Positions 469-22,476 of a stretch of DNA of 64,000 nucleotides are shown here, in pieces. The stretch is from Escherichia coli (GTDB lineage: Bacteria > Pseudomonadota > Gammaproteobacteria > Enterobacterales > Enterobacteriaceae). Made by a program: the position numbers and the translations under genes. The stretch lies in NCBI RefSeq assembly GCF_965641715.1, contig NZ_OZ282453.1, one strand, 5' to 3'. Below the pieces are notes generated by a model. The model was not told the DNA's origin. It saw only the letters and a program-made list of their open reading frames with translations, and ran no database searches. Position 1 is the stretch's first letter. Each line of letters opens with the position of its first letter.

Positions 469-3400
469 TTACCACTGAATACCGGCACCGAGTGCGGCGG
501 AGTATTCACCCTGGCTATTGGTACTACCTTGTAATTTGTAGACCCAACGACCATTGGCGCTCACCATCGACACACCTAAAGCAACTGCCGATTCACCGTT
601 GTAAGTACCGCCACCAATAGAGGCCATGCTGGCACCTGGAGTGTAAGCCTGCGGCAGACCGGTCATTGCCATTGCAGAAGCGATACCACCGCTCAACTTG
701 CTTTCAGTTTTAGACAGTTTGTTATCCATCTCAACCATCCGCTGATCGGTGTATTGCTTCGTTTCCTGCACGCTTTGCTTCAACTGCGCGTAGTTCACCG
801 CGTCGTTGTTGTTGACGCCAGCGGAGACGTTGCTGATACGAGTCGTACCGCCGTTGCCCCCACCGAGGGTGATATTGCTATAGTCAACAGAACCATCAGC
901 GTTGGTGTCGTAACGTACACCGCCCGCCTCAGAAGACTTCAACTGTGCCACGTTAACAGCATCGGTGTCGTTTTTACCTGCGGCTACGTTGGTGATACGA
1001 CGTTGATTAGTAGATGAGCCTACAGAGATCGTATTTTCTTCGGTTGCCACAGACCCTGTACCCAGTGCGACGCTGTTATCCGCGGCAGCAATGGAACCAG
1101 AACCAATCGCGACGCTATCTTTACCCTGCGCGCTGGCATCTACACCATCGGTATTGGTCTTGAAGTACTTGGTGCTACCGGTGGTGACGATATCGCCAAT
1201 ACCGTTTTCGATATTAGTAACGCGAGTATCCAGATTAGTGACCTGATTGTTCAGGTTAGTAATGCTCTGGGTATTCTGGGAAACCTGCGCATCCGTTACT
1301 TTCAACTGACCTACGTTGACCGCATCGGTATCCGCTGAACCAGCTGCGACGTTGGTGATCTGACGTTGACCGTCTTCACTACCAACAGAAAACTCACCTA
1401 CAGAGTTCTGCGGTGCGTCCATGTTGTAGGCGGTGTAGCCAGTCTGTGCACCACGGGTGGTCTGAGAACCGTTACCCATTGCAATACTGTTTGCATGGTT
1501 TGCGCGTGCGTTACTGCCGATAGCAATGCCGTTGATCGCATCAGCCAGAACCAGAGTGTTCAAACCGATACCAATACCTGCATTACCATTAACGACAGTT
1601 TTCGCACCCATTGCCAGCGAGTCTTCACCAACGGCCAGTGAGTCTTCTGCCGTTGAGTTGGCGTGAAAGTACTTGGTTGGCGTGGTTGCGACCGCACCAA
1701 TCGCATTCTGCAATTGACGAACCGTAACGGCGTCATGGGCTTCGGAACCATCAGCTACGTTGATGATTTGGCGGTATTTACCGTCATTACCAATTGACAA
1801 TGCACCTAGCAGTTCGCCGTCAGTGGTGTCATAACCAATCACCACGCCATTTTCCGTTACGCTAGTGTCACGAGAACCTTTGGCAATCACACGGCTGGAA
1901 ACGGAGCTGCTACCCAGCGCAATACCGGTATCAACGGTGCTATTGCTGTTCTGACCAATGGCTACGCTGCTGGCACCAGACGCGACAGCGTTATAACCTA
2001 CAGCTGTAGCGCCGACACCAGAGGCGCTTGCATCGTTAAAGGCTAAACCGTTGTCGTTAGTACGAACGTAGTTGATACCAGCGCCATTTTCTTCGATATA
2101 GGTTGCGTCGGTGTTACCAGCAAGCTGATTGATGATTTGGCTGTTCTGCTCAATCATCATATTCGTCGCATTCAACTGAGAACCGTTCACTGCATCGGTA
2201 CTGTCCTCACTAATACTGCCATTAGCGACATTAGTGATGATGCTGGCTTTACCGTCATGGCTGGCATTGTAGGCTCCTGCACCGCCATTGGCAGTCTCAT
2301 CCCACAGCAGGGCGTTATCATCAAGCGCATCCAGGGCGTCACCGACGTTGTTGTACTCGGCGTTCGCAATGGTGTAAGTCGGTGCGGTGATGGTGCCGTC
2401 AGCGTTAACTTCTGCATCACCACCCAGCGCATCAGCGATGTACTTGTTGGTGGTATACAGTTGTGAGCCGTTAATAGCATCGCTGCTGGTTGCGGAGACT
2501 GTACCGGCTGCAACATTAGTGATCTTGCTGGCGGAGTTATCTTTCCCGTGACCAGCACTGAATGCACCTTTACCATCATTGGCTGTTGCATCCCACAGCA
2601 GAGCATCATCGAGAGTGGTGTCGATGGCGTTCAGGGCATCACCGACGTTATCGTAATCAGCATTAGCAATGGTGTACGTCGGCGCAGTGATGGTGCCGTC
2701 TGCATTGATTTCGGCACCACCACCCAACGCATCTACGACGTACTTATTGGTGGTATAGAGTTGCGAGCCGTTCACAGCATCAGAGCTTGTGCTTGAAACA
2801 TCCCCGTTTGCGACATCAGTGATCACGCTTGCGTCACCATTAGTACCGTGTTTGGCACTAAATTTATCTACGGAAGCGTCCCAAAGCAGGGCATCGCCGA
2901 GAGACGTGCTAAATGAGGAGTTAATCGCAGCTAGTGCATCGCCGACGTTATAATAATTTGTTTCACCGATTTTGTAGGTTGGACCGGTAAACACACCGTC
3001 AGTATTCACAGAAGCATTGCCGCCGAAGTAGGTGGCGATATTGCTGCTTAAGTCATAAAGCTGGCTGCCGTTAATGGCATCGGAACTGGTTGCAGTGACT
3101 GCGCCGTCCAGGATATTGGTGATTTTGCTGGCGGCGTTGTTGCCATGAGCAGCCGTGAAGACACCATTGTCCTTATCCCATTTCAGCGCATCTTCACCAA
3201 GGTTAGTCACCGTCTCAGTCAGGTTAGAGATGTTGGTGGTGTTAGTGGCAATATTGGTGGTATTCGTCGCCACAGCATCGTTGGTGGTTTTCAGCTGGGA
3301 GCCGTTAACGGCATCAGTGCTGCCAGCCGTCAGGTCGGCATCTTTAACGTTGGTGATTTTGCTGGTGGCGTTGTTGCCGTGAGCTGCCGTGAATACACCA

Positions 3401-5358
3401 TTGTCCTTATCCCATTTCAGCGCATCTTCACCAAGGTTAGTCACCGTCTCAGTCAGGTTAGAGATGTTGGTGGTGTTAGTGGCAATATTGGAAGTGTTAT
3501 TGGCGATATTGGTGGTATTCGTCGCCACAGCATCGTTGGTGGTTTTCAGCTGAGAGCCGTTAACGGCATCGGTGCTGTCAGCCGTCAGGTCGGCATCTTT
3601 AACGTTGGTGATTTTGCTGGTGGCGTCGGTGCCATGAGCTGCCGTGAATACACCATTGTCCTTATCCCATTTCAGCGCATCTTCACCAAGGTTAGTCACC
3701 GTCTCAGTCAGGTTAGAGATGTTGGATGTGTTAGTGGCGATATTGGTGGTGTTGGCTGCCACGGCATCGTTGGTGGTTTTCAGCTGAGAGCCATTAACCG
3801 CGTCAGTGCTGCCAGCCGTCAGGTCGCCAGCGGTGACGTTGGTGATTTTGCTGGTGGCATCAGTACCGTGTGCGGCGCTGAATGCTGTACCCTTCCAGAG
3901 GAGGGCATCATCCTTAAGGTCGCCAACGGAATCCGTCAGGTTGGTGATATTGGTGGTGTTAGTGGCGATATTGGTGGTGTTGGTTGCCACATTATCATTG
4001 GTGGTTTTCAGCTGAGAGCCGTTAACGGCGTCTTTACTGGTAGCCGAAATATCGCCATCTTTTACATTGATGATTTTGTTTTCTGCTACGGTACTGGTAA
4101 TCGTTCCATCAGCATTTTTAACAATATAATTGGCGCTGAAAGCCCCTTTAGCTGAGTCCCAGTGCAGAGTTTCATTGTCAAGGTACTGGAGTGCTTCACC
4201 AACGTTATTGAAATTCTTTTTCTTCAGTTGAAAAGACATATCCATTATTGTTCCGTTAGTAGCAACATTTGCTCCGCCTCCCAGCCTGTCTGCTACTGAC
4301 CTACTAATGGCGTAAAGTTGTGAACCGTTAATGGCTTCTTTACTGTCCGTTGAGATTGTACCTGCCGCCATATTGACGATGCGACGCTGCGCTGACCCAG
4401 AGCCTACCGATACAACGTTGTCTTCACCTGCTGTAGAGTTTGCACCAATCGCGACGGAGTTATTCCCTCCTGCAGAGGATGAACTTCCTAATGCAAGACT
4501 GTTTGATCCAACCGCAGAACTTCCTGTACCGATCGCAATAGCATTTGCGGTTGATGCGCAGCTGTTCTGGCCTAATGCGATGGTGTTTGTGTTTGATGCT
4601 TGCGCATTTTGCCCCAAGGCAAGAGCACTTGCGCCAGTAGCCGCTGCTGTATATCCCAGGGCAACAGAACCTTCACCTGTTGAATCACTGTTTGCACCTA
4701 ATGCAAGACTGTTTTTGCCTCGAGCTTTCGCTTTAGTACCTACAGCCGTCGCATTTTCAGCGGCTTCGGTCTCAGCACCTATCGCAATGGAGTTTGCTGC
4801 ACTGGCAAGTGATTGCCTGCCTAATGCCAGAGAGTCTGCGCCGTTCGCCTTTGCAGATTTTCCCAGCACTAAAGAGTTGCTGGCAGTAGTAGCAGCTTGT
4901 GCTCCGACCCCCAGGACAACTGAATATTCTGCCAGTCCGTCGGCCCCACTACCGATTGCGATCGCTCGGTTTCCGGAAGCTTCTGCCACTTGTCCGATTG
5001 ATACCGATCTCTCTCCGGTTGCGTAGCTTTGGTAACCTAATGCAGTCGAACCAATACCTGTAGCCCAGGCGTTCGCGCCCACCGCAACTGCACCAGTCCC
5101 ATTGCCCACTGAGGACGCTCGTGCACCCTGGCCAATAGCTACCCAGACATCAGTGATTTCTGTTGGATCAGAGAATGTGCCACCATCAAGTGACGCACTG
5201 GCGTTTGCCCCAAACGACGAAAACATTCCACCCGCAACCAGGGCAGAAATTAACAGCTTACTGCGACCAGATTTCTTACCACGGCTCTTCGCTGTTTCGC
5301 TGGCAACGCTATAACTGCCCGTCGCCGGATTCCAGATGACTTTAAATATTTTGTTCAT
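469..5358 (-). CDS. upaG: Trimeric autotransporter adhesin, SadA/UpaG/EhaG family, 1629 aa
   Basis: N-terminal extended signal peptide [10 protein letters not shown]...; Ala/Gly/Ser-rich head repeats (NSLALG, NSVAIG); many neck motifs S(T)DAVNGSQL; Asn/Thr-rich coiled-coil stalk; C-terminal YadA-like anchor ending ...[10 protein letters not shown]. Symbol assigned by family and position only, allele not determined. Confidence 0.85.
3140..4110. repeat. Four near-identical tandem repeat units (about 234-255 bp, 78-85 aa each) inside the adhesin stalk, with 7-aa NTTNIAT-type sub-repeats
   Basis: The string cattgtccttatcccatttcagcgcatcttcaccaaggttagtcaccgtctcagtcaggttagagatgttgg recurs at about 3165, 3399 and 3654; the antisense ORF 3145..4155 shows the same peptide three times, confirming DNA-level identity. 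Confidence 0.75.
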
Positions 5359-5401: not shown

Positions 5402-6085
5402 TTATTTTTTGTTTTTTCGCTGCCGAGTTTCAGCAGATTGAACAGTGTCGAACTGGAGATTGGCCATATTGATGGACAACTTCAGATACTTCAGGTTATT
5501 AGGCGAAACGCCTTTTAATGTCAGATTAATGTCTTGCCATTGACCAGGCATTAATTGCAGAGTGGAATTCAGAGCGGTATTGAAAAGTAATTGTTGCCAC
5601 TTCGCCAGAGCTTTGGCATCGGTGGGCCTTTCATTGCCCCATGTAGCATGAAAACCAATATTTGATACGGGAACGCTTAATAGGTTGACCAGCGAAATAC
5701 GAATAACGCTGCCGTTTTCAACTGCATCAATAGCCAGCACCCGACCCGCCAAACCGACAGAGCCGTTATTTAAAATGAAGTAGTGTGTTTGTGCTGGGTT
5801 AAATTCTGTGAAGACAAATTCATCCTGCTTTTCTTTAACTCCCTTCACCACACTAGCAAGCGTTTTGGTACTACTTATGATGGCAGTTTGCTGTTTTTCA
5901 AATAGTTCTATCTTGCGTTTATCTTGTTCTTGTTGTTTTTCAAGTTGCTCTATTTTACTTTTTTGCAACTCTTGCTGTTTGGAAAGATCGTCGATTAGTT
6001 TTGCTTTTCCAATATAGTCACACCCTGTCAACATGCAGAGTGGCGATATCATTAACAAGCTTAATAGTATCTTTTTTAGATTCAT
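5402..6085 (-). CDS. SadB-like inner-membrane lipoprotein, 227 aa, putative adhesin surface-display helper
   Basis: Signal peptide with lipobox LTGC followed by Asp at +2 (CDY), an inner-membrane retention signal; coiled-coil-prone Gln/Glu/Lys-rich region; start has SD aaaggaa; 43 bp upstream of and co-oriented with the adhesin gene, as in Salmonella sadB-sadA. Confidence 0.7.
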   Translation of the reverse strand: MNLKKILLSLLMISPLCMLTGCDYIGKAKLIDDLSKQQELQKSKIEQLEKQQEQDKRKIELFEKQQTAIISSTKTLASVVKGVKEKQDEFVFTEFNPAQTHYFILNNGSVGLAGRVLAIDAVENGSVIRISLVNLLSVPVSNIGFHATWGNERPTDAKALAKWQQLLFNTALNSTLQLMPGQWQDINLTLKGVSPNNLKYLKLSINMANLQFDTVQSAETRQRKNKK

Positions 6086-9462: not shown

Positions 9463-11376
9463 TTACTTACGACCTGCCAGCAGTTCCAGCACTTCATCCA
9501 CACTGGTGGTGTGTGCCAGACGCTCGATGACAGACTCATCATCCAGTGCGTTGGTCAGGCTGGTGATAACCTGAATGTGCTCGTTGTTACGGGCTGCAAT
9601 ACCAATCACCAGACGGGCAATGTCATCTTCTTCTTCGCCGAAGCGCACGCCTTCCGGGTACTGGCAGAACACGACGCCAGTTTTCAGTACGCGATCTTTC
9701 GCTTCAACCGTACCGTGCGGCACTGCGATAGACTCACCCAGATAAGTCGGGGTCAGTTTTTCACGATCCAACATCGCCTGAACGTACTCCGGCTCAACGT
9801 AACCACCTTTCACCAGCTGCTCGCCAGCAAAACGAATCGCTTCTTCTTTGGTGGCAGCTTTGCGACCGAGGAAGATGTTCTCCGCGCCCAGTTTGAACAG
9901 GTTAGCACTGGAATCGTCAAAGCTGTCTTTCAGACTGTCTTTCACTTTCACTTCGTTTTCAGTATGGCGCTGGGCAGCAACCAGACGTTCGGTCAGGCTG
10001 GTGTACAGGCCGCTGTCGAGGAAGTTGGTCAGCGAAATATGCTGTGCCTGCGGAACCTGGCGCATAGCGCGTTCGGTCAGGTCACGGTGAGTGATGACGA
10101 GGTCCACATCTGGCGGCAGGTTGTTGATCGCGCTGTTAGTGACCGAAATCTGCGACAGACCTGCATCCTGAATTTTCTTACGCAGCACGCCTGCGCCCAT
10201 CGCACTTGAACCCATACCGGCGTCACAGGCAACGATGATTTTACGTACGTGGCTCAGGTCGTTAGTCACATCGCCCGCAGACAGCGGAGATGCACCTTTA
10301 GACTCAGCTTTCATGTCCTGCATACGACGAGTTGCTGCTTCAATATCATCTTCTTCTTTCACTTTGCTGGTTTTCAGCAAAATAGCAGAGACAACAAAGG
10401 AGACAGCCATCGCCGCACACACACCCGCGATGTTAGCGAAATAAGCACCTTTTGGTGTCATCGCCAGTACAGCAAGGATAGAACCCGGAGATGCCGGAGA
10501 AACCAGACCACCGCCCAGGATAGTCAGCGTGAACACGCCAGTCATACCGCCGAGGATAACGGCCAGGATCAGACGCGGATTCATCAACACATACGGGAAG
10601 TAAATTTCGTGGATACCACCCAGGAAGTGGATAATTGCCGCACCGCCCGCAGACTGTTTAGCGCTACCACGACCAAAGAACATGTACGCCAGCAGCACGC
10701 CCATACCCGGACCTGGGTTAGCTTCAATCAGGAAGAATATGGATTTACCCAGTTCATGGGACTGCTGAATACCCAGCGGCGAGAAGATACCGTGGTTAAT
10801 GGCGTTGTTGAGGAACAGGATTTTCGCCGGTTCAACAAAGATAGACGCCAGCGGCAGCATGTCATGGACAACCATGAAGTTAACGCCCGCAGCCAGCATT
10901 TTGGACAGGGCTTCAACAATCGGGCCAATGCCGAGAAATGCCAGAATGGCGAGGATCATCCCGATGATGCCTGCGGAGAAGTTATTCACCAGCATCTCAA
11001 AACCGGATTTGATCTTACCGTCTACCCAGCGGTCGAAGTGCTTAATGCACCAGCCGCCCAGCGGACCTGCAATCATAGAACCGAGGAACATCGGCATGTC
11101 TGCGCCGACGATAACGCCCATGGTGGTGATGGCACCGACTACGCCGCCACGTTCGCCGCCTACCAGCTTACCACCGGTATAACCGATCAGCAGCGGCAGG
11201 AGATAAGTGATCATCGGCCCGACCAGCTTCGCCAGCGTCTCGTTCGGTAACCACCCTGTTGGAATAAATAACGCGGTGATGATACCCCACGCGATAAACG
11301 CGCCGATATTTGGCATCACCATGTTGCTGAGGAAACGACCAAAGCTTTGCACTTTGATCTTAATATCGGATGACAT
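9463..11376 (-). CDS. mtlA: Mannitol-specific PTS enzyme IICBA, 637 aa
   Basis: Full-length match in size and sequence to MtlA ([25 protein letters not shown]...). Confidence 0.95.
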
Positions 11377-11912: not shown

Positions 11913-12275
11913 ATGTTTCTAAACTATTTCGCGTTGGGAGTGCTGATCTTCGTCTTTCTGGTGATTTTTTATGGAATCATCGCGATACATGACATCCCTT
12001 ATTTGATTGCCAAAAAGCGCAACCATCCCCATGCCGACGCTATTCATACGGCGGGCTGGGTGAGCCTGTTTACTCTGCATGTTATCTGGCCGTTTCTGTG
12101 GATCTGGGCGACGCTCTATCAACCGGAGCGCGGCTGGGGCATGCAGTCACATGTTGCGTCGCAGGAGAAAGTGACTGACCCGGAAATCGCCGCACTTTCT
12201 GACCGAATTTCCCGGCTGGAGCACCAACTCGCCGCCGAGAAAAAGACTGACTATTCCACGTTCCCGGAGATCTAA
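11913..12275 (+). CDS. yibI: DUF3302-type small membrane protein YibI, 120 aa
   Basis: N-terminal transmembrane helix and conserved [20 protein letters not shown] motif; paralogue of yiaW at 21011. Confidence 0.85.
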
Positions 12276-12277
12276 TT

Positions 12278-13414
12278 ATGGATCTATTGATTGTTTTAAC
12301 TTACGTGGCGCTGGCGTGGGCGGTCTTTAAAATCTTTCGTATTCCGGTGAATCAATGGACGCTGGCGACGGCGGCGCTGGGAGGCGTGTTTCTGGTGAGT
12401 GGTTTGATTTTGTTGATGAACTACAACCACCCTTACACTTTTACCGCGCAAAAGGCTGTGATAGCGATCCCCATCACGCCACAGGTGACGGGAATTGTTA
12501 CTGAAGTCACTGACAAGAATAATCAGCTTATTCAAAAGGGCGAGGTGCTTTTTAAGCTCGACCCGGTTCGTTACCAGGCGCGAGTTGACAGACTTCAGGC
12601 TGACCTGATGACGGCGACGCATAATATAAAGACGCTGCGCGCGCAGCTCACTGAAGCGCAGGCCAACACCACCCAGGTTTCAGCGGAGCGCGACCGTCTG
12701 TTTAAAAATTATCAACGTTATCTGAAAGGCAGCCAGGCGGCGGTGAATCCGTTCTCGGAACGTGACATCGACGATGCGCGGCAAAATTTCCTCGCGCAGG
12801 ATGCGCTGGTGAAAGGCTCGGTGGCGGAGCAGGCGCAGATCCAGAGCCAGCTCGACAGTATGGTCAACGGCGAGCAATCGCAGATTGTGAGCTTAAGAGC
12901 GCAACTTACTGAAGCAAAATATAATCTTGAGCAGACTGTCATTCGCGCACCAAGCAATGGCTACGTCACTCAGGTACTGATCCGCCCAGGCACATACGCA
13001 GCTGCCTTGCCGTTGCGTCCGGTGATGGTTTTCATCCCCGAGCAAAAACGGCAAATTGTCGCCCAATTTCGGCAAAACTCGCTGTTACGTCTGAAACCTG
13101 GTGATGATGCGGAAGTGGTGTTTAACGCGCTACCTGGGCAGGTGTTCCACGGCAAACTGACCAGTATTTTACCTGTCGTGCCAGGCGGTTCTTATCAGGC
13201 GCAGGGGGTATTGCAATCATTAACGGTCGTGCCCGGCACGGACGGTGTGCTGGGAACCATTGAACTGGACCCTAACGATGATATCGATGCCTTACCCGAC
13301 GGCATTTACGCCCAGGTGGCAGTTTACTCCGACCATTTCAGCCATGTTTCGGTGATGCGGAAAGTGCTGCTAAGAATGACCAGCTGGATGCATTATCTTT
13401 ATTTGGATCATTGA
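12278..13414 (+). CDS. yibH: HlyD-family membrane-fusion-like protein YibH, 378 aa
   Basis: N-terminal transmembrane helix, long coiled-coil, C-terminal beta domain; 2 bp downstream of yibI; paralogue of yiaV. Confidence 0.85.
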
Positions 13415-13484
13415 GACTTATATCACCTGTGTTTTGCGTGAGCCTGAGCCATACTGATATTTTTCCTCGCACAAAGGACTCGGC

Positions 13485-14093
13485 ATGAAACTCGTCGGTA
13501 GCTACACCAGCCCGTTTGTACGCAAACTTTCTATTCTGTTGTTAGAAAAGGGCATAACTTTCGAATTTATTAATGAACTGCCCTATAACGCGGACAACGG
13601 CGTGGCGCAATTTAACCCGTTAGGAAAAGTGCCGGTGCTGGTGACCGAAGAGGGCGAATGCTGGTTTGATTCGCCGATCATCGCTGAATATATTGAATTA
13701 ATGAATGTCGCTCCGGCGATGTTGCCGCGCGATCCGCTGGAGTCGTTGCGGGTGCGCAAAATTGAGGCACTGGCGGATGGCATTATGGATGCCGGGCTGG
13801 TATCGGTGCGTGAACAGGCGCGTCCAGCGGCGCAGCAGTCTGAAGATGAATTGTTACGCCAGCGGGAGAAAATCAACCGTAGTCTGGATGTGCTGGAAGG
13901 ATATCTGGTCGATGGCACACTTAAAACCGATACGGTCAATCTGGCGACGATCGCCATTGCCTGTGCCGTCGGATATCTCAATTTCCGCCGCGTTGCGCCA
14001 GGCTGGTGTGTCGACCGCCCACACTTAGTCAAACTGGTCGAAAACCTGTTTAGCCGCGAAAGTTTTGCTCGCACCGAACCGCCAAAGGCTTGA
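13485..14093 (+). CDS. yibF: Glutathione S-transferase-like protein YibF, 202 aa
   Basis: Thioredoxin-like GST N-terminal signature ([28 protein letters not shown]); position upstream of selA. Confidence 0.88.
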
Positions 14094-14190
14094 TGCGCGA
14101 TATGTCCTCCTGACCCATCTCACGTTACAATCCGTGGTTATGTTAAACGCCCTTCTCCGTGTGAGAGGGCCTTGATCAGCCAGGTTTCCT

Positions 14191-15582
14191 ATGACAACCG
14201 AAACGCGTTCCCTCTATAGTCAACTTCCGGCTATTGATCGCTTATTGCGCGATAGCTCCTTCCTTTCTTTGCGTGATACTTATGGTCACACCCGCGTGGT
14301 GGAATTGCTGCGTCAGATGCTTGACGAAGCGCGAGAAGTGATTCGTGACAGCCAGACGCTTCCCACGTGGTGTGAAAACTGGGCGCAAGAAGTCGATGCC
14401 CGGTTGACGAAAGAGGCGCAGAGCGCGCTGCGTCCGGTGATAAACCTGACGGGAACCGTGCTGCATACCAATCTTGGGCGAGCTTTACAGGCGGAAGCTG
14501 CGGTGGAAGCCGTTGCGCAGGCTATGCGTTCGCCAGTGACCCTCGAGTACGATTTGGACGACGCCGGACGCGGACATCGCGATCGGGCGCTGGCGCAGCT
14601 GCTGTGCCGCATTACCGGCGCGGAAGATGCCTGTATCGTTAATAACAATGCGGCGGCGGTGTTATTGATGTTGGCGGCCACTGCCAGCGGGAAAGAGGTG
14701 GTGGTTTCTCGCGGCGAATTGGTGGAGATTGGCGGCGCGTTTCGTATTCCCGATGTTATGCGTCAGGCAGGCTGCACACTATACGAAGTAGGGACCACCA
14801 ACCGCACGCACGCGAATGATTATCGTCAGGCGGTGAATGAAAATACCGCACTGTTGATGAAAGTACATACCAGTAACTACAGCATTCAGGGGTTCACCAA
14901 AGCGATAGACGAAGCTGAACTGGTGGCGCTCGGCAAAGAGCTGGATGTTCCAGTGGTGACTGATTTAGGCAGTGGCTCGCTGGTCGATCTTAGCCAGTAC
15001 GGTTTGCCGAAAGAGCCAATGCCGCAGGAGTTGATTGCGGCGGGCGTCAGTCTGGTGAGCTTCTCCGGCGACAAGTTGTTAGGCGGGCCGCAGGCAGGGA
15101 TTATCGTTGGTAAAAAAGAGATGATCGCCCGCCTGCAAAGCCACCCGCTGAAGCGTGCATTACGCGCGGATAAAATGACCCTCGCGGCGTTGGAAGCCAC
15201 GTTGCGTCTTTATTTACACCCTGAAGCTCTGAGTGAAAAATTACCGACCCTGCGCCTGCTTACCCGCAGCGCAGAGGTCATTCAAATCCAGGCACAACGT
15301 TTACAGGCTCCCCTTGCCGCACATTACGGCGCGGAGTTTGCGGTACAGGTTATGCCATGTCTTTCGCAGATTGGCAGTGGTTCGCTGCCGGTTGATCGCC
15401 TGCCGAGCGCGGCATTAACGTTTACACCCCATGATGGACGCGGTAGCCACCTTGAGTCATTAGCCGCCCGCTGGCGTGAATTGCCAGTGCCGGTGATTGG
15501 TCGTATTTATGACGGACGATTGTGGCTGGATTTACGCTGCCTTGAAGATGAGCAACGGTTTTTGGAGATGTTGTTGAAATGA
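14191..15582 (+). CDS. selA: L-seryl-tRNA(Sec) selenium transferase, 463 aa
   Basis: Length and sequence match; stop overlaps the selB start (ATGA at 15579-15582). Confidence 0.95.
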
Positions 15583-17423
15583 TTATTGCGACTGCCGGAC
15601 ACGTTGACCACGGCAAAACAACCTTATTGCAGGCGATTACTGGCGTAAATGCCGATCGTCTGCCGGAAGAAAAAAAGCGCGGCATGACTATCGATCTCGG
15701 CTATGCCTACTGGCCGCAGCCGGATGGCCGCGTGCCTGGTTTTATCGACGTACCCGGTCATGAAAAGTTTCTTTCCAACATGCTGGCGGGCGTTGGTGGT
15801 ATCGATCACGCGCTGTTGGTGGTGGCGTGCGATGACGGCGTGATGGCACAGACCCGTGAGCATCTGGCGATTTTGCAGCTGACCGGTAACCCGATGCTGA
15901 CAGTGGCGCTGACCAAAGCCGATCGCGTGGACGAAGCGCGTGTTAATGAGGTTGAACGCCAGGTAAAGGAGGTGCTGCGGGAATACGGTTTTGCTGAGGC
16001 AAAACTGTTTATCACCGCAGCAACCGAAGGTCGGGGAATTGATGCCCTGCGCGAGCATCTGCTTCAGTTACCAGAACGTGAACACGCCAGCCAACATAGT
16101 TTCCGCCTCGCGATCGACCGCGCATTTACCGTAAAAGGTGCCGGGCTGGTCGTCACCGGTACGGCGTTAAGCGGGGAAGTGAAGGTAGGCGATTCACTAT
16201 GGCTGACTGGTGTAAATAAACCGATGCGTGTACGTGCACTGCATGCACAAAACCAGCCAACAGAAACCGCTCATGCCGGCCAGCGTATCGCGCTTAACAT
16301 CGCGGGGGATGCGGAAAAAGAGCAGATTAACCGTGGCGACTGGCTGCTTGCCGATGTGCCGCCAGAGCCGTTCACGCGGGTGATTGTCGAGCTTCAAACC
16401 CATACGCCGCTGACCCAGTGGCAGCCGCTGCATATTCACCACGCCGCCAGCCACGTTACGGGACGCGTTTCGCTGCTGGAAGATAACCTTGCCGAGCTGG
16501 TGTTCGACACGCCGCTGTGGCTGGCGGATAACGATCGCTTAGTGTTGCGCGATATCTCGGCCCGCAATACGCTGGCGGGGGCGCGTGTGGTGATGCTTAA
16601 CCCGCCGCGTCGCGGTAAACGTAAGCCGGAATATCTGCAATGGCTGGCGTCTCTTGCACGGGCGCAGAGCGATGCCGATGCGTTATCTGTTCATCTGGAA
16701 CGCGGAGCGGTTAACCTTGCGGATTTCGCCTGGGCGCGCCAGCTCAACGGCGAAGGGATGCGCGAACTGCTGCAACAGCCTGGCTATATTCAGGCTGGTT
16801 ATAGCTTGTTGAATGCGCCGGTTGCCGCCCGCTGGCAGCGGAAAATTCTCGACACATTAGCGACTTATCATGAGCAACATCGCGATGAACCTGGTCCTGG
16901 GCGCGAGCGTCTGCGACGTATGGCGTTGCCAATGGAAGATGAAGCGCTGGTACTGTTGCTGATTGAAAAGATGCGCGAAAGCGGCGACATCCACAGCCAT
17001 CACGGCTGGTTGCATCTGCCAGATCACAAAGCGGGCTTCAGCGAAGAGCAGCAGGCCATCTGGCAAAAAGCAGAGCCGCTGTTTGGTGACGAGCCGTGGT
17101 GGGTGCGTGACCTGGCAAAAGAGACGGGAACCGACGAGCAGGCAATGCGTCTGACGCTACGCCAGGCGGCCCAACAGGGGATAATTACCGCGATCGTCAA
17201 AGATCGTTATTACCGTAACGATCGGATTGTCGAGTTTGCCAATATGATCCGCGATCTCGATCAGGAATGTGGTTCAACCTGCGCGGCGGATTTCCGCGAT
17301 CGCTTAGGGGTTGGGCGAAAACTGGCGATTCAAATCCTGGAATATTTTGACCGCATTGGCTTTACGCGTCGTCGTGGAAATGATCATTTATTGCGCGACG
17401 CATTATTATTTCCGGAAAAATAA
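15579..17423 (+). CDS. selB: Selenocysteine-specific translation elongation factor, 614 aa
   Basis: GTP-binding motif [11 protein letters not shown] at the N-terminus; length and position match. Confidence 0.95.
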
Positions 17424-21010: not shown

Positions 21011-21334
21011 ATGTTCCTGGATTATTTTGCACTGGGAGTGCTTATTTTTGTATTTCTGGTGATATTCTATGGGATTATTATTTTACATGATATTCCCTAC
21101 CTGATTGCTAAAAAACGTAATCATCCTCATGCCGACGCCATTCATGTTGCTGGTTGGGTGAGTCTTTTTACGCTGCATGTTATCTGGCCATTTTTGTGGA
21201 TTTGGGCCACGCTTTACCGCCCGGAGCGGGGATGGGGAATGCAAAACCATGATTCATCCGTTATGCAACTGCAACAGCGCATTGCCGGGCTGGAGAAACA
21301 GCTCGCCGACATCAAATCCTCTTCTGCCGAGTAA
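21011..21334 (+). CDS. yiaW: DUF3302-type small membrane protein YiaW, 107 aa
   Basis: ORF track starts at a TTG (20981); ATG at 21011 gives [23 protein letters not shown]..., nearly identical at the N-terminus to YibI. Confidence 0.85.
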
Positions 21335-21339
21335 TACTT

Positions 21340-22476
21340 ATGGATTTACTGATTATTTTGACCTATGTGGCTTTTGCATGGGCAATGTTTAAGATCTTCA
21401 AAATTCCCGTAAATAAATGGACCATTCCCACAGCGGCCCTGGGTGGAATATTTATTGTCAGCGGTCTAATTCTGTTAATGAACTATAACCATCCGTATAC
21501 CTTTAAAGCGCAAAAAGCGGTTATTTCTATTCCTGTTGTCCCACAGGTGACTGGTGTGGTGATTGAAGTGACGGATAAGAAAAATACGCTGATTAAAAAA
21601 GGTGAAGTGCTATTTCGACTGGACCCGACGCGTTATCAGGCGCGGGTGGATCGGCTGATGGCGGATATCGTTACCGCAGAACATAAACAGCGGGCGTTGG
21701 GCGCAGAGTTAGATGAGATGGTGGCGAATACTCAGCAGGCAAAGGCCACGCGGGATAAATTCGCTAAAGAGTACCAGCGTTACGCACGCGGCAGCCAGGC
21801 GAAAGTAAACCCGTTTTCAGAACGCGATATTGATGTGGCACGGCAAAATTATCTGGCGCAGGAAGCCTCCGTAAAGTCATCGGCGGCGGAACAAAAACAG
21901 ATCCAGAGCCAGCTGGATAGCCTGGTGTTGGGTGAACATTCTCAAATCGCCAGCCTGAAAGCGCAGCTCGCGGAAGCAAAATATAACCTTGAGCAGACGA
22001 TAGTGCGTGCGCCGAGCGATGGTTATGTGACCCAAGTGCTGATTCGTCCGGGTACCTATGCCGCGTCGCTGCCGCTACGTCCGGTGATGGTGTTTATACC
22101 CGATCAGAAACGACAAATCGTGGCGCAGTTCCGTCAGAACTCCTTGCTGCGACTGGCTCCTGGCGACGATGCGGAAGTGGTGTTTAATGCTCTGCCAGGT
22201 AAGGTATTCAGCGGTAAGCTGGCAGCCATTAGTCCAGCCGTTCCCGGCGGAGCTTATCAGTCGACCGGCACCTTACAGACGTTAAACACAGCGCCGGGTT
22301 CAGATGGCGTTATCGCGACCATTGAACTGGATGAGCATACTGATTTGAGCGCATTACCAGACGGTATTTACGCCCAGGTGGCGGTCTACTCTGATCATTT
22401 CAGCCATGTCTCGGTGATGCGCAAAGTACTGTTACGCATGACCAGCTGGGTGCATTACCTTTATCTCGATCATTAA
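21340..22476 (+). CDS. yiaV: HlyD-family membrane-fusion-like protein YiaV, 378 aa
   Basis: Same architecture and length as YibH; C-terminus [20 protein letters not shown] is nearly identical to that of YibH. Confidence 0.88.

Follow-up and report, generated by a model that had tools for sequence, protein, structure and literature searches.

An unoccupied RhsA insertion site between yibH and yibF in Escherichia coli

In Escherichia coli K-12 MG1655, eight genes and pseudogenes separate yibF from yibH, the order in the RefSeq annotation being yibF-rhsA-yibA-yibJ-yibG-yibS-yibW-yibV-yibU-yibH. In the 64-kb stretch of E. coli DNA analysed here (hereafter the window) the same two genes lie 70 bp apart, which raises the question whether the RhsA element never entered this site or was present and has been lost. 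An earlier note on this DNA had given the K-12 order, correctly as the MG1655 annotation demonstrates, and had proposed both readings. Most E. coli of the phylogroup A and B1 types carry the RhsA effector and immunity set; the strain studied here is without one polymorphic-toxin (Rhs) effector/immunity set at yibH-yibF, which bears on its repertoire against competing bacteria. At the same time, the locus cannot join here in recombination between rhsA and rhsB, the process from which Rhs elements took their name.

The junction and its K-12 counterpart

The ORF list and the sequence place the end of yibH at position 13414 and the ATG of yibF at 13485, leaving a spacer of exactly 70 bp (13415-13484), and the same yibI, yibH, yibF, selA and selB gene calls are annotated by RefSeq in a complete genome 98.6% identical to the window. 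This adjacency is a matter of structural comparison, to which a chance model is not applicable. Upstream, mtlA (9463-11376, minus strand) is followed on the plus strand by yibI (11913-12275), the first gene of the yibIH pair, which encodes a 120-aa DUF3302 protein (PF11742, E = 2.7e-41) and is annotated as yibI in near-identical genomes, and by an intact yibH (12278-13414, with its TGA at 13412-13414), identified from the ORF list and Pfam as a 378-aa membrane-fusion protein of the HlyD family. Downstream, also on the plus strand, yibF (13485-14093) encodes a 202-aa glutathione S-transferase-like protein (NF007682 equivalog, 407.7 bits, E = 7e-123; Pfam GST_N and GST_C), and selA (14191-15582; TIGR00474, E = 5.7e-190) and selB (15579-17423) form a right flank, 14191-17423, that is collinear with K-12 and annotated likewise in the 98.6% identical genome.

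Alignment of the junction to K-12, the check that the earlier note had proposed, places the breaks at 13415/13416 and 13447/13448. On the yibH side, homology reaches window position 13415, the G after the TGA, equivalent to position 14243 of the K-12 segment (L001), as seen both by BLAST and by inspection of the junction; on the yibF side it restarts at 13448 (GCCATACTGAT...), equivalent to L001 5993. Between these breakpoints K-12 has 8,249 bp (L001 5994-14242) whereas the window has 32 bp, ACTTATATCACCTGTGTTTTGCGTGAGCCTGA (13416-13447), a sequence found in the empty allele only: a search of the K-12 region allowing up to 8 mismatches yielded no copy of it. Outside the breakpoints the two genomes are collinear and gapless over 5,759 bp on the left (98.1% identity) and 5,993 bp on the right (97.4%). 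Divergence along these flanks is uneven, with anything between 0 and 24 mismatches in a 500-bp stretch, and the 653 bp directly beyond the right breakpoint (13448-14100, comprising yibF and its 37-bp leader) are 99.4% identical to K-12.

The K-12 RhsA element thus occupies the same chromosomal position, with the same flanks, as the yibH-yibF site of the window. It has a core of DUF6531, 10 RHS_repeat stretches and RHS, a Ntox34 tip (all Pfam assignments), yibA and orphan fragments, while the window is without all of these. When K-12 RhsA was compared with the whole 64-kb window by tblastn, the best match had E = 0.78 and no Rhs core, which would be a large ORF of about 1,400 aa, was found; blastn with the entire 8.25-kb K-12 island gave zero matches in the same window, and hence no toxin tip, immunity gene or downstream ORF, in agreement with what the earlier note had concluded from the letters. 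The borders of the K-12-type island, GGGGGAGGGG beside yibH and ...CCCATCACCAG beside the yibF leader, are likewise absent from the junction.

These observations bear directly on the possibility that RhsA was once present and was excised or lost in place by illegitimate recombination, the 70 bp being the resulting junction. Rhs loci do decay and recombine among themselves (Jackson et al. 2009, PMC2935791), but the spacer holds 32 bp that are missing from the occupied allele, and an empty allele of this kind is therefore not derivable from the occupied one by deletion; moreover, neither island border is left behind and no direct repeats flank the site. We regard in-place deletion as effectively refuted and, with the spacers of other Escherichia species also considered (see below), as very improbable. 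Direct and inverted repeats were also sought in and around the spacer as a possible remnant of a target site, and none was found; no repeat is shared between the two ends of the K-12 island, or between either end and the empty site. An attachment site for an integrase-type island was considered and rejected, there being no flanking direct repeats and no integrase annotated in the K-12 island or in that of strain MY504 (described below).

Feulner et al. 1990 (J Bacteriol 172:446) reportedly gave the length of rhsA in K-12 as 8,249 bp and described an Rhs0 isolate that has 32 bp of unrelated sequence instead, and these numbers are exactly those given by the breakpoints computed here. The adjacency of yibH and yibF, the K-12-collinear flanks, the 32 bp standing against an 8,249-bp element and the recurrence of this allele in nature (see below) together identify the spacer, on the ORF list and cross-genome alignment, as an unoccupied RhsA site of the Rhs0 type. 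An empty RhsA site is thus something already known for decades, common (28% of the genomes counted below) and ordinary, and it matters little beyond the description of this strain. The genes flanking it are those of rhs locus 10 in the survey by Jackson et al. 2009 (BMC Genomics 10:584; PMC2935791, Table 3), situated between yibF and yibH, at which some strains have no gene and which those authors inferred to postdate the split from an rhs-poor pathogenic lineage; ten further rhs positions are known from the same table.

The part of the spacer found in both empty and occupied alleles is the 37-bp yibF leader (13448-13484, plus strand), which runs from GCCATACTGAT to AAGGACTCGGC and is identical in K-12. 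It contains a CATACT motif and an AAGGA ribosome-binding site, and in an alignment of spacers the CCATACT and AAGGA columns are kept across Enterobacteriaceae; CATACT is a candidate -10 element for yibF. A consensus scan called neither a promoter nor a terminator within the spacer, leader included, and a search of 12800-14300 against Rfam at E ≤ 1 returned no structured RNA. The 70 bp are plain spacer with the ribosome-binding site of yibF and have no activity as a site; they probably carry the yibF promoter as well.

States of the site among E. coli genomes

To place the window's allele among others, we counted the states of the site in 5,426 complete E. coli genomes from RefSeq, where Jackson et al. 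2009 (PMC2935791) had covered 20 strains. In 1,521 genomes (28%) the site is empty, a single aligned piece of unchanged length running across the junction; 3,673 (68%) have the K-12-type yibF border together with an rhs core gene; 143 (2.6%) have an unrelated island of about 10.4 kb; and about 89 (1.6%, by subtraction) are unclassified. The empty state was counted with a 1,101-bp query across the junction, and we take its result as correct. A 66-bp junction query recovered only 435 genomes, which is an undercount, since alleles of the B2 type have SNPs in the spacer and megablast needs an exact 28-mer word. On the yibH side, 3,711 genomes of this set have the K-12-type border, and the near-equal counts of the two fixed borders (3,673 on the yibF side) suggest a single ancestral insertion.

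Empty sites are found in CFT073, 042 and O145:H28, among others, and occupied ones in K-12 derivatives, BL21(DE3), IAI1, O111:H8, O104:H4 and O157:H7. Both O145:H28 (empty) and O157:H7 (occupied) belong to phylogroup E, so that the state must have moved between lineages or have been lost more than once. The distribution of the states in E. coli fits the account of Jackson et al. 2009 (PMC2935791).

Among the same 5,426 genomes, the best match to the first 25 kb of the window (1-25000) is baboon strain A30, at 98.6%, followed by O145:H28 strains at 97.7%, and since the best match reaches no more than 98.6%, the source lineage has no close representative in this collection. The resemblance to other genomes forms a mosaic, as with GDSC2227PM, where an identity of 99.8% over 1.1 kb falls to 98.9% when 13 kb are compared. 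In this genome, the nearest across the junction, yibH is annotated as a pseudogene owing to an internal stop (GAG to TAG at L002 6121, equivalent to window position 13020, where the window has GAG and an intact yibH).

Such patterns are relevant to a second way of arriving at an empty site, namely that an ancestor with RhsA received the allele of an empty-site donor through crossovers in yibH/mtlA and yibF/selA, without leaving a scar. The mosaic similarity, the occurrence of both states within phylogroup E and the uneven divergence of the flanks from K-12, as expected in a recombining region, are all consistent with such a replacement. On the other hand, no sequence feature demands it, and all 15 of the 15 complete genomes that best match the first 25 kb align straight across the site. 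On balance we consider allelic replacement rather unlikely for this strain, while treating it as a serious alternative.

Outgroup loci and the direction of change

Loci outside E. coli were located by a YibF scan of GTDB species representatives followed by tblastn. The genes yibI-yibH-yibF-selA are adjacent in E. whittamii, in Escherichia sp. E1V33 and in two divergent genomes labelled 'E. coli', and they are also adjacent in Citrobacter amalonaticus, C. koseri, Kluyvera cryocrescens, Lelliottia, Huaxiibacter and Pluralibacter; Rhs matches were sought in these adjacent-type loci and none was seen in any. The outgroup spacers measure 61-92 bp, apart from that of C. koseri, which is 174 bp and has an insert. 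The 70-bp spacers of E. whittamii and Escherichia sp. E1V33 match that of the window at 66-67 of 70 positions, the 32 bp included, and the spacer of C. amalonaticus is recognisably homologous to it, again including the 32 bp. The adjacency in the outgroups and the match of the Escherichia spacers show that the empty allele is the ancestral state rather than a deletion scar, and, on this comparison of sequences, that RhsA is a derived insertion. The present data support the interpretation in the earlier note, and of its two readings the ancestral 32 bp favour the first: that the element was never acquired is a better fit than that it was deleted in place.

The account that we prefer, and consider quite probable, is that 13415-13484 is the spacer in its ancestral form, never interrupted and corresponding to the classical Rhs0 state, and that RhsA inserted in an ancestor of K-12-like lineages. 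One event would there have set the 8,249-bp composite element, made up of an rhs core gene with its Ntox34 toxin tip, yibA and the downstream orphan fragments, immediately after the yibH stop codon, replacing 32 bp of the spacer. Since then both alleles would have been segregating in E. coli, inherited by descent and exchanged through homologous recombination between the conserved flanking sequences, and the window strain would have kept the original one. Beyond the observed gene order, breakpoints, absence of Rhs DNA, allele frequencies and outgroup conservation, a single insertion, its spread through recombination in the flanks and a lineage that never carried the element are what we infer, and that the site was never occupied in the lineage of the window strain is, taken by itself, likely. 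The population counts and outgroups in this way confirm the long-held view of RhsA as a derived insertion and bring no new biology.

Two outgroup genomes do not have the empty state. In Escherichia sp. MOD1-EC7003 (L009 1-2962) the site is not empty, 184 bp of K-12-type border being followed by other content, namely a fragment of an ISAs1/H-repeat-like transposase (DDE_Tnp_1_assoc) and unknown ORFs, with the rhs core absent; in E. albertii NBRC 107761 (L010 1-838) a 230-aa ORF that is not yibH lies directly upstream of yibF. The absence of the empty state from these two genomes suggests that the polymorphism at yibH-yibF may be older than E. coli itself.

Both of these contigs end just upstream of yibF, and short-read assemblies break at Rhs cores, which are multi-copy repeats; an artefact could arise in this way if the assembly had merged or omitted a repeated rhs element and falsely joined yibH to yibF. 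Such a collapse would leave K-12-type borders, however, whereas the window's junction has the specific 32-bp empty allele, and 1,521 complete genomes have a junction of identical type; we find an assembly artefact scarcely credible here. Even taken jointly, in-place deletion and artefact retain a very slight probability.

A second island, a G-rich border and neighbouring genes

The unrelated island of about 10.4 kb lies at the same yibH-yibF site (equivalent to window 13415/13416) and is seen, for example, in E. coli MY504 (L003 5635-16063) and in isolate AHB7 (L004). It carries a fimbrial operon of the chaperone-usher type together with genes for a regulator of the AraC family and for an autotransporter of 1,226 aa that is annotated as an S6 peptidase, and the genomes that have it retain almost all of the spacer, in diverged form, on the yibF side. 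The presence of this unrelated fimbrial/autotransporter island in 143 genomes indicates that occupation of the site is not confined to RhsA.

Directly after the TGA-G of yibH, both the RhsA and the MY504-type islands open with the same 11-nt sequence, GGGGGA(G/A)GGGG, located at L001 14242-14232 in K-12 (minus strand) and at L003 5636-5646 in MY504, the equivalent window position being 13416; the ancestral empty spacer does not have this 11-mer. A comparison of the K-12 and MY504 islands gave no common sequence beyond this G-rich border. The 11-mer could mark a common mechanism of integration or replacement, or perhaps a sequential occupation of the site. That the bases after the yibH stop form a recurrent insertion hotspot with some common mechanism is a speculative reading, to which we give little credence, and we know of no earlier description of a hotspot with a common G-rich border after yibH.

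At the other end of the K-12 island, about 25 nt by the yibF-side breakpoint weakly resemble the spacers of E. albertii and UBA7338 (shuffle fractions 0.004 and 0.0065, respectively), while no resemblance was found to the spacers of the window, MY504 or C. amalonaticus. This is weakly suggestive of the spacer having survived in the occupied allele as an old version that has since diverged.

A second pair of DUF3302 and HlyD-family genes, yiaW-yiaV (21011-22476), is paralogous to yibI-yibH and lies 7.6 kb downstream in the window; second copies resembling YibI and YibH (about 75-78% protein identity) are likewise found downstream in E. whittamii, MOD1-EC7003 and C. amalonaticus. Near the start of the window, a 1,629-aa ORF on the minus strand (469-5358), between lldP and yibL, is assigned to the YadA-like (trimeric autotransporter) family by the annotation of the closest genome; a DUF3251 gene comes next, at 5402-6085. 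This YadA-like ORF is the probable reason why BLAST with the first 25 kb hit many repeated places in each genome.
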